A DNA stretch of 4,590 bases from a virus. Lineage: Duplodnaviria > Heunggongvirae > Uroviricota > Caudoviricetes. A program made the position numbers and the translations under genes. The DNA lies in the IMG/VR virus record IMGVR_UViG_2734482538_000008, one strand, 5' to 3'. Below, in pieces: positions 2,415 to 4,590 of the stretch. The notes under the pieces were generated by a model. That model searched no databases. It was not told the origin of the DNA and saw only the letters and a program-made list of their open reading frames with translations. Position 1 is the stretch's first letter. Each line of letters opens with the position of its first letter.

Positions 2415-2518
2415 TTAAATTTAGCACTGTTAAAAATTTAATCCTTAACCGGAGGGATTTCTGCACCCTCAAATCATCAGGAGACCACCCGAAAGGGCGG
2501 GGAGCAGTCACACATCTG

Positions 2519-2548
2519 TTTCCGATAGCCCCGTTCTAATGCTACACT
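2519..2548 (+). promoter_or_regulatory. Candidate sigma70 promoter with extended -10 upstream of the QueH-like gene
   Basis: TGcTACACT (extended -10, 2540-2548) with a weak -35 TTTCCG (2519-2524). It lies in the 146-nt intergenic gap before ATG 2562. Purely a sequence-pattern call. Confidence 0.25.
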
Positions 2549-2561
2549 CTTTGATATTTTT

Positions 2562-3248
2562 ATGACCCCAATAAACATATTTATGACAGTTGCTGATTTC
2601 AAACGGCCCAAATTGGAGCTCCCAAACGGGGCAAACAAACTACTACTGCACTCTTGCTGTGCTCCATGTTCCGGTGAGGTGATGGAGGCGCTTCAGGCCT
2701 CGGGAATCGACTACACCATCTTTTTCTACAACCCGAACATTCATCCTCAGAAAGAGTATTTAATTCGTAAGGATGAGAATATTCGCTTTGCTGAACAACA
2801 CGGCGTGCCGTTTATTGATGCTGATTACGACACAGACAACTGGTTTGAACGAGCCAAAGGAATGGAATGGGAGCCCGAACGAGGGATCCGTTGCACCATG
2901 TGTTTTGACATGCGTTTTGAGCGGACAGCGCTGTACGCCGCTGAAAATGGTTTCAGTGTGATCAGCAGTTCACTGGGCATTTCACGCTGGAAAAATATGC
3001 AGCAGGTTAACGACTGTGGGCGGCGAGCCGTCGCGCATTATCCGGGCATGGTGTACTGGGATTATAACTGGCGCAAGCAGGGCGGCTCGTCCCGTATGAT
3101 TGAAATCAGCAAGCGCGAAAAATTCTATCAGCAGGAATATTGTGGCTGTGTGTATTCTCTGCGCGATACCAATCTACACCGCAAATCTCAGGGACGCCCT
3201 CTTATCAAAATTGGTCAACTCCACTACGGTAAAGAAGAGAAGGAGTGA
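2562..3248 (+). CDS. queH: QueH-like epoxyqueuosine reductase homolog (DUF208 family), 228 aa
   Basis: Translation carries the N-terminal [14 protein letters not shown] motif, then [21 protein letters not shown] and QEYCGCVYS. This cysteine pattern is what I recognise as the DUF208/QueH family. Assigned from memory of the family, not from a search. Start could be ATG 2562 or ATG 2583; neither has a clear SD. Stop TGA at 3246-3248. Confidence 0.8.
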
Positions 3249-3299: not shown

Positions 3300-3317
3300 G
3301 ACTGCGGGTGCTTGAGG

Positions 3318-3354
3318 CTATCTGCTTCAGGCATGAACACCAAAAGGCAGATAG
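3318..3354. repeat. Perfect 8-bp inverted repeat CTATCTGC ... GCAGATAG (21-nt spacer); operator or 5' stem-loop candidate
   Basis: CTATCTGC at 3318-3325 pairs base for base with GCAGATAG at 3347-3354. It sits just downstream of the predicted start of the 3270-3299 promoter. The same 8-mer recurs at 3794-3801. Confidence 0.4.
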
Positions 3355-3395
3355 AGAAAAGCCCCAGTTAACATTACGCGTCCGGCAAGACGCTT

Positions 3396-3681
3396 NNNNN
3401 NNNNNNNNNNNNNNNNNNNNNNNNNNNNNNNNNNNNNNNNNNNNNNNNNNNNNNNNNNNNNNNNNNNNNNNNNNNNNNNNNNNNNNNNNNNNNNNNNNNN
3501 NNNNNNNNNNNNNNNNNNNNNNNNNNNNNNNNNNNNNNNNNNNNNNNNNNNNNNNNNNNNNNNNNNNNNNNNNNNNNNNNNNNNNNNNNNNNNNNNNNNN
3601 NNNNNNNNNNNNNNNNNNNNNNNNNNNNNNNNNNNNNNNNNNNNNNNNNNNNNNNNNNNNNNNNNNNNNNNNNNNNNNNNN
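3396..3681. other. Run of 286 N (assembly gap or masked sequence)
   Basis: Directly visible. It lies between a candidate promoter plus hairpin (3270-3354) and an intrinsic terminator (3712-3763), so whatever that unit encodes is hidden. Confidence 0.99.
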
Positions 3682-3711
3682 GTGTCAGGCATCCTCAACG
3701 CACCCGCACTT

Positions 3712-3763
3712 AACCCGCCCATCGCTGTGATCTCTCAGCGTTTCGGCGGGTTTTTTGTTGTTT
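3712..3763 (+). terminator. Rho-independent terminator (bipartite GC-rich hairpin followed by T-run)
   Basis: Outer stem CCCGCC (3714-3719) pairs with GGCGGG (3745-3750), extendable by two A-T pairs. Inner stem CGCTG (3723-3727) pairs with CAGCG (3736-3740) around an 8-nt loop. Followed by TTTTTTGTTGTTT (3751-3763). The orientation terminates + strand transcripts coming from the left. Confidence 0.55.
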
Positions 3764-3776
3764 ATTTCCGGTGAAT

Positions 3777-4211: not shown

Positions 4212-4565
4212 ATGGCACATATACAACTGGTCAAACAAACCTCTTCCGGATTACTTCTCCCGGCGACGCCGGAGAGTTGCGATTTTCTGCATCAAATCAA
4301 AATAGGTGAGTGGATACACGCAGACTTTAAGCGTGTGTGTAACTACGCATTCCACAAGCGTTTTTTCAAACTCCTGCAACTGGGTTTCGATTACTGGACT
4401 CCGGTCGGTGGGGCGATCACGCCTCGCGAACGAAAACTGGTGTCCGGTTTCGTTGATTACCTGTGTGAATCAGTAGGCCGGGAACATACGCCAGCTCTGA
4501 GCGAAGCCGCAGAGCAATTGAGGTGTACTGGCAATAGCGGACACTACCATTTGTTCTTTTTTTAA
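4212..4565 (+). CDS. Hypothetical nin-region protein, possibly YbcN/DUF1367-like (117 aa as sequenced; may be truncated)
   Basis: GGAGA at 4201-4205 sits 6 nt before ATG 4212. Translation MAHIQLVKQTSSGLLLPATPESCDFLHQIKIGEWIHADFKRVCNYAFHKRFFKLLQLGFDYWTPVGG... resembles my recollection of DUF1367/YbcN-type prophage proteins (low certainty). The TAA stop (4563-4565) uses the last base of a T7 run (4557-4563). Confidence 0.55.
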   Translation: MAHIQLVKQTSSGLLLPATPESCDFLHQIKIGEWIHADFKRVCNYAFHKRFFKLLQLGFDYWTPVGGAITPRERKLVSGFVDYLCESVGREHTPALSEAAEQLRCTGNSGHYHLFFF

Positions 4566-4590
4566 GCAGCCATCTGATGATATTTTTCCC

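Follow-up and report, generated by a model that had tools for sequence, protein, structure and literature searches.

A mobile queH gene of QueG-bearing enterobacteria, carried by lambdoid prophages and IncF plasmids and encoding a probable B12-independent epoxyqueuosine reductase

The window, that is, the whole analysed stretch of 4,590 nucleotides (IMG/VR virus record IMGVR_UViG_2734482538_000008), belongs to a lambdoid, Rac-like prophage. The list of its open reading frames contains an uninterrupted frame of 228 amino acids at 2562–3248 on the plus strand, within which lies the gene queH. The features of the gene and its upstream region are as follows.

2512–2582, plus strand: upstream region that travels with queH and is common to different prophage backbones and plasmids
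2540–2548, plus strand: candidate extended -10 promoter element TGCTACACT, starting 43 nt before the ATG at 2583 and proposed from its conservation
2583–3248, plus strand: queH coding sequence, 221 aa, stop codon included, placed by PF02677, the RefSeq coding sequence and the N-termini of homologues
2649–2669, plus strand: motif HSCCAPC with H23, C25, C26 and C29 (numbering of the 221-aa protein), aligned with H7, C9, C10 and D13 of T. maritima QueH
2889–2903, plus strand: motif RCTMC with R103, C104 and C107, invariant in the alignment of 43 homologues
3138–3158, plus strand: motif YCGCVYS with C187, G188 and C189, invariant in both alignments and aligned with YCGCVFS of T. maritima

For comparison we used FDAARGOS_944, the closest complete genome, which is 99.8–99.9% identical over most of the unmasked window. 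Its prophage of ~43 kb lies between ybhA and pgl and has the following gene order.

Integrase, excisionase, gam and recE
Then a Rha-family regulator, cI/cro-like regulators and ydaT
Then an O-like gene, ydaV (DnaC-like), DUF977 (Ren-like) and a zinc-ribbon ORF, followed by queH
After queH, hokD/sok, a small ORF, DUF1367 (NinB-like according to PHROGs), DUF1364 and DUF1133 (Q-like)
Then four tRNA genes (Ile, Arg, Thr and Gly), the lysis, terminase, head and tail genes, and ipaHb

In the window, runs of N mask hokD as well as ydaV in its 3' half. The ORF downstream of queH corresponds to phrog_340, and the DUF1367 gene is labelled NinB/Orf-like by PHROGs. The first-pass annotation had placed queH in the nin region of a prophage. 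The gene is indeed prophage-borne. The nin region is roughly correct, with the replication genes (O-like, DnaC-like and DUF977/Ren-like) upstream, and hok/sok, phrog_340 and the NinB-like DUF1367 gene downstream. The type I toxin-antitoxin system hok/sok occupies 3306–3730 directly downstream of queH and is masked at 3396–3681. The Rfam family sok (RF01794) was found with 117 bits at the equivalent of 3306–3481, and the annotated hokD corresponds to 3476–3631. A GC-rich hairpin with a T run at ~3715–3765 appears to mark where the hok transcript ends. Just upstream of queH there is a zinc-ribbon ORF at 2001–2414 (likely start ~2058, 119–137 aa) with the pattern C-x2-C...C-x2-C and a basic coiled C-terminus. 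It belongs to PHROG 1621 (unknown function), gives a weak match to the TFIIB zinc ribbon, and is absent from the other queH-carrying prophages examined. At the far end of the FDAARGOS_944 prophage (locus L016, 16861–18687), the ipaHb gene adjoins the remnant of a DNA invertase, by the attachment end on the side of pgl. The ipaHb product is an E3 ubiquitin ligase that belongs to the type III secretion effectors and is typical of Shigella. PADLOC gave no significant match for QueH or its immediate neighbours.

Both ends of the window (~1–104 and ~4519–4590) match the ends of IS600, an element of the IS3 family. The 4.4-kb prophage segment between the two IS600 copies is cut inside the 5' end of the O-like gene and, at 4518, inside the DUF1367 gene. 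An exact match to the IS600/O-like-gene junction was sought in species-representative genomes, and none was found. The bracketing points to a decayed prophage in a host that is rich in IS elements and resembles Shigella. It is possible that queH and hok/sok between the IS600 copies form a composite-transposon-like unit. When compared with the FDAARGOS_944 prophage (otherwise 98.8% identical), the O-like gene has A8 in place of A6 at 311–318 and a 10-bp deletion (TCCCCCTAAA) at ~449, which split it into ORFs 80–343 and 513–782. The split gene is either a pseudogene or the result of a homopolymer sequencing error. Despite the IS bracketing and the frameshifted O-like gene, queH itself is intact.

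The intact frame had been reported with a start at 2562, and this part of the first-pass annotation should be revised. The true start is most likely the ATG at 2583, giving a protein of 221 aa. The start at 2562 was rejected, because this upstream ATG is not conserved and is replaced by ATT in the allele of the O7:H15 ST70 prophage; the ATG at 2583 is invariant. In addition, the RefSeq coding sequence of WP_012421537.1 begins at the equivalent of 2583 in the queH of FDAARGOS_944, which is 100% identical, and the N-termini of chromosomal QueH homologues align to 2583. The identification itself is already public, since RefSeq PGAP names exactly this protein, WP_012421537.1, "epoxyqueuosine reductase QueH".

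The first-pass annotation had assigned the protein to the QueH/DUF208 family on the basis of its HSCCAPC and CGC cysteine motifs, and had proposed a DUF208 profile search and an alignment to characterised QueH as checks. Both motifs are present at the positions listed above, and both checks support the assignment. Using a Pfam search, we found a match to PF02677 (QueH) with an E-value of 1.9e-65 and 220.6 bits against a gathering cutoff of 23.5. The match is full-length, covering positions 1–174 of the 175 in the profile and residues 27–201 of the 228-aa ORF. No NCBIfam model matches the protein. The E-value against T. maritima QueH (PDB 7lc5) is 5e-22. One alignment comprised 13 proteobacterial homologues and the T. 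maritima sequence, and the other comprised 43 diverse sequences with identities down to 35%. The putative ligand roles are taken from alignment to the PDB sequences and from the names of the PDB mutants. The QueH ligand pattern H-x-C-C-x-x-(C/D), C-x-x-C, C-x-C is complete (H23, C25, C26, C29, C104, C107, C187 and C189), and all seven cysteines are invariant in the 43 diverse homologues. In a wider sample of 80 representatives of 50%-identity clusters (81 sequences in all), R103 is kept in 80, C104 in 78 and C107 in 77 of the 81 sequences. The metal-ligand positions of T. maritima QueH are thus kept, with Cys29 replacing Asp13. It turned out that Cys stands at the position of D13 in 67 of the 72 family representatives having a residue there. 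Therefore, the window protein has the seven-cysteine pattern of the family majority, and T. maritima is exceptional. The C29 codon is at 2667–2669; at this position the structural model organism is atypical, and it is a residue that crystallographers chose to mutate (D13N). The PDB entries of T. maritima QueH include the mutants C9S and D13N, a queuosine complex and a GMP complex. The mutants, together with the queuosine complex, indicate that the CCAPx motif is functionally central.

An AlphaFold2 model of the protein, built from the 43-sequence alignment, has a pLDDT of 95.9 and a pTM of 0.91. In a Foldseek search against the PDB, the best five matches were all T. maritima QueH, with target-normalised TM scores of 0.90–0.92 and rmsd of 1.2–1.9 Å (0.92 and 1.2 Å on 7lc5). 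The next matches, TtuA and other enzymes of the PP-loop/adenine-nucleotide-hydrolase type, had query-normalised TM scores of ~0.5 or less. The window protein therefore resembles T. maritima QueH (7lc5, 7lc7 and 9deu; PF02677/IPR003828) in the full-length profile match, the fold, the CC...CxxC...CxC pattern preceded by a conserved His, and the motifs FFYNPNI and RTA. It differs in sequence (~31–33% identity), in having C29 for Asp13, and in a basic C-terminal tail of ~20 residues and a short N-terminal extension, both common to proteobacterial homologues. It also differs in being encoded by a prophage.

The nearest non-mobile relatives are the chromosomal QueH proteins of other Enterobacterales (Providencia, Photorhabdus, Erwinia, Serratia, Pantoea, Enterobacter, Scandinavium, Kluyvera and Proteus), which are 80–92% identical and have the same length and termini. 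We inspected five of these chromosomal contexts.

Providencia: queH adjoins tmcA and purC
Photorhabdus: queH adjoins benE
Erwinia: queH lies between purL and glrK/glnB/hmp/glyA
Scandinavium: queH lies amid short-chain dehydrogenase, metallo-beta-lactamase-fold and DUF1543 genes
Enterobacter: queH lies beside chorismate mutase and GGDEF genes

None of the five contexts is phage-like. Thus, close relatives of the gene occupy housekeeping or non-phage loci, whereas the gene studied here lies in a lambdoid prophage of a QueG-bearing host. No other queuosine gene was found beside queH in the five contexts either, so a lone QueH is not unusual, contrary to what had been supposed. The statement that enteric hosts use QueG holds for E. 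coli, in which queG is present in all 5426 complete genomes. It does not hold for the order, many members of which have a chromosomal QueH.

QueG is thus a core enzyme of E. coli, and queH is accessory: it was found in 995 of the 5426 complete genomes (18%), all of which also carry queG. This agrees with the redundancy with host QueG that had been suggested at first. The matches cover at least 80% of the gene in 985 of the 995 genomes, and every E. coli match listed is annotated as "epoxyqueuosine reductase QueH" and none as a pseudogene. The hok/sok flank alone is present in 4308 of the 5426 genomes. In the lambdoid backbones examined, including that of the Escherichia phage HannyBb, queH always comes shortly after a DUF977/Ren-like gene. 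What follows queH varies. O104:H4 has hokD in this place, an O157:H7 strain has an NgoMIV-type restriction-modification system, and O7:H15 ST70 has a DUF1971 gene. The slot after queH looks like a cargo hotspot. In the prophage of E. coli O157:H7 Z1767 (locus L014, 7851–9861), a cytosine methyltransferase and an NgoMIV-family restriction endonuclease replace hokD, and here the slot behaves as a hotspot of both cargo and defence. The queH gene is placed as a moron is, between conserved phage modules and before the variable cargo and the nin/Q region, and it is present in some relatives and absent from others. The type strain of E. albertii has a 99% copy of queH behind DnaT-domain and DUF977 genes.

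HannyBb is the one cultured phage with queH among 50,697 phage records; its QueH has 97.7% protein identity and is labelled "hypothetical protein". Other "phage" records with QueH, namely unannotated gut contigs, Listeria "phage" contigs, and Acinetobacter and Staphylococcus "phages" of 280–380 kb, were left out because their assignment to phages is doubtful. On plasmids, a QueH homologue occurs in 302 records, mostly from Klebsiella and Escherichia, and conjugative IncF plasmids are among them. With these records and 18% of the complete E. coli genomes, queH is not rare. Two plasmid copies were compared with the window.

6001–6669 of locus L017: queH on a Klebsiella IncF plasmid
6001–6669 of locus L018: queH on a Salmonella IncFII plasmid

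Their proteins show 92–97% identity, and both have the same upstream region as the window. In one of them queH lies downstream of repA genes with copC nearby, and in the other it lies beside the iron-dicitrate genes fecC/fecE.

We estimated dN/dS by the Nei-Gojobori method. For four prophage and phage alleles dN/dS is 0.025–0.054 at dS of 0.15–0.45, and with two plasmid alleles added it is 0.015–0.042 at dS of up to ~1.7. Judged by these values, the mobile queH alleles are under strong purifying selection. The 33 codons before Met34 are under the same constraint, and in this part the window and the ST70 allele differ by 8 synonymous and 0 non-synonymous changes. Thus, selection acts on the full-length protein with the CCAPC motif. 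This is important for the annotation of the gene, because PHROG 3217 ("unknown function", 188 aa), which covers QueH, has a profile beginning at residue 41 of the 228-aa ORF, that is, at the internal Met34. Many database cluster representatives also begin QueH at this Met. Its ATG is at 2682–2684 in the window and is preceded by the Shine-Dalgarno-like GGTGAGGTG. We rejected this start, since codons 1–33 are under purifying selection; it appears to be a systematic mis-annotation, and probably an artefact arising from GGTGAGGTG. A start at Met34 drops the CCAPC motif, and therefore phage annotation pipelines miss the QueH function.

These data also bear on whether queH could be a neutral passenger that hitch-hikes in a lambdoid recombination hotspot with no selection for its function in E. 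coli. The variable cargo region, in which the neighbours differ between prophages, and the presence of QueG in the host would fit such a passenger. It is nevertheless very unlikely that queH is one: all ligand residues are kept, 985 of the 995 E. coli matches cover at least 80% of the gene, with none of those listed annotated as a pseudogene, and dN/dS among the mobile copies ranges from 0.015 to 0.054. On this last ground the pseudogene or passenger reading was rejected.

We also considered how queH might be expressed. The homology to other prophages, to HannyBb and to plasmids begins at about position 2512 of the window, and plasmid and prophage copies of queH have 70–90 bp of upstream sequence in common. 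The element TGCTACACT stands at -43 in nearly all mobile copies (prophage, HannyBb and IncF plasmids), and in the ST70 allele it is TGCTACACA. It is also found 40 nt before the chromosomal queH of Erwinia. The -35 of the candidate promoter matches at 3 of 6 positions. A consensus promoter/terminator scan called nothing for queH, TGCTACACT included, and there is no obvious Shine-Dalgarno sequence before the ATG at 2583. In Rfam, no riboswitch or other RNA family was found upstream of queH, and nearby there were only sok and the tRNAs. With a poor -35, no call in the scan and no clear Shine-Dalgarno sequence, autonomous expression of queH from its own candidate promoter is plausible at most. The orientation of queH is that of the replication genes in the early-right operon, and the scan detected no terminator between them. 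Therefore, its expression might be mainly lytic.

This last point could mean that queH serves the phage itself. In the lytic cycle, the early-right transcript would then yield QueH, which would shift the host tRNA from epoxyqueuosine (oQ) to queuosine (Q), the benefit to the lysogen being incidental. This shift might tune how the NAU/NAC codons of phage genes are decoded, or counter a host response that works through the Q status of tRNA. In addition to the shared orientation without a detected terminator, the constant position of queH just after the DUF977/Ren-like gene, also in the isolated phage HannyBb, is consistent with such a role. According to a 2026 preprint, phage infection of Shewanella raises queG expression, with lower oQ and higher Q (10.64898/2026.03.05.709803). 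This indicates that the oQ-to-Q step is relevant to infection. However, the tRNA genes of the prophage (Ile, Arg, Thr and Gly) are not those of Q-tRNAs, queH is intact in a decayed, IS-bracketed prophage remnant, and cultured phages provide a single carrier among 50,697 records. Moreover, conjugative IncF plasmids, which have no lytic cycle, carry queH together with its upstream region, and in prophages the neighbours of queH are variable accessory cargo; both points argue for a benefit to the host over a function for the phage alone. We therefore consider it unlikely that the gene serves primarily the phage.

The first-pass annotation had suggested a non-tRNA substrate, such as a 7-deazaguanine derivative, and a survey of the prophage for dpdA, queC, queD and queE. 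None of these genes, nor queA or a tgt-like transglycosylase gene, was found in the annotated 43-kb prophage of FDAARGOS_944 between ybhA and pgl. Likewise, no DpdA or preQ0 synthesis genes were found in the 12.7 kb around queH of HannyBb. Unlike the phage 7-deazaguanine clusters (DpdA with FolE, QueD, QueE and QueC), queH is accompanied by none of the transglycosylase or preQ0 genes in these two stretches. We know of no report of an epoxyqueuosine-type base in DNA. The PDB complexes of QueH with GMP and with free queuosine demonstrate nucleoside and nucleotide binding, and deazaguanine modification of DNA is known in phages (PMC6884629), so its substrate might be a free nucleoside or base, or else a 7-deazaguanine derivative within phage DNA. 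With the partner genes absent, this suggestion hardly deserves credence. In addition, no homologues of QueA, QueG or QueH were present in the viruses analysed by Hutinet et al. in their 2019 survey of viral deazaguanine genes (PMC6884629). The 80–92% identity of the protein to chromosomal QueH encoded in housekeeping loci favours an ordinary role in tRNA.

Thus, the reading that we prefer is that queH serves its bacterial host as an ordinary tRNA-modifying enzyme. In this role QueH would deoxygenate epoxyqueuosine (oQ34) to queuosine (Q34) by iron-sulfur chemistry, with no cobalamin, at wobble base 34 of tRNA-Asn, -Asp, -His and -Tyr. It is very probable that the gene encodes a real and functional QueH, and we infer that the enzyme is active on tRNA in E. 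coli. E. coli does not synthesize cobamides de novo, and QueG needs a cobamide, so the likeliest benefit of queH is the completion of Q-tRNA when B12 is scarce. Frey et al. (1988) reportedly dealt with the dependence of oQ reduction on cobamides in E. coli and Salmonella. QueH requires Fe-S clusters and so may itself fail under some conditions. From what is known of the two families, QueG (E. coli yjeS; cobalamin and [4Fe-4S]) catalyses the same reaction, from oQ34-tRNA to Q34-tRNA, and QueH is a non-homologous enzyme that yields the same product (PMC7694415). The two enzymes are unrelated in fold and cofactor. E. coli K-12 makes oQ/Q-tRNA (PMC9508795). QueG is among the cobamide-dependent enzymes of E. 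coli, and deletion of queG left growth unchanged in one condition reported (PMC11841063).

The queH gene may accordingly be described as an accessory moron whose origin would lie in an Enterobacterales chromosome, from which it would have been taken, probably together with a promoter of its own. Its present carriers, between which it would move, are lambdoid prophages and IncF plasmids in Escherichia, Klebsiella, Salmonella and their relatives. Like other lambdoid morons, it is a single host-metabolic gene with a putative promoter of its own, placed between phage modules and beside hok/sok or restriction-modification cargo. It differs from them in that no flanking terminator was detected and in that conjugative plasmids carry the cassette too. 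Where B12 is scarce, a lysogen or a cell with such a plasmid would complete Q-tRNA synthesis, and a phage replicating in such a cell may gain as well. Taken as a whole, the explanation that this is a functional QueH carried as a mobile host-benefit moron for the B12-independent conversion of oQ to Q seems to us likely. We know of no established phenotype of oQ versus Q, and the selective advantage of queH is therefore conjecture. Whether B12-independence is the selected trait of the mobile gene we regard as an evenly balanced question. More tentative, and in our judgement somewhat below even, is the broader proposal that mobile queH is a selected B12-independence module spreading through QueG-bearing Enterobacteriaceae on lambdoid prophages and IncF plasmids.

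A search of the literature on QueH/DUF208 together with prophages, phages or horizontal transfer found no paper on QueH borne by mobile elements. A B12-independent enzyme that finishes queuosine, carried as prophage and plasmid cargo in hosts with QueG and kept under strong purifying selection, is not discussed in the searchable literature. If the broader proposal is true, queH would be the first recognised case of a tRNA-queuosine maturation gene carried as cargo by phages or plasmids, and temperate phages could use QueH to secure Q-dependent decoding in infection or lysogeny. A practical point for phage annotation is that the label "unknown function" of PHROG 3217 and the start of its profile at an internal Met hide QueH. 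If the enzyme is active, strains would differ from one another in oQ versus Q in their tRNA, and K-12 would not fully represent the Q biology of pathogenic E. coli and Shigella. If the gene is indeed a B12-independence module, about one fifth of E. coli strains would differ from K-12 in their oQ/Q status at low cobamide, for example, at extraintestinal sites.
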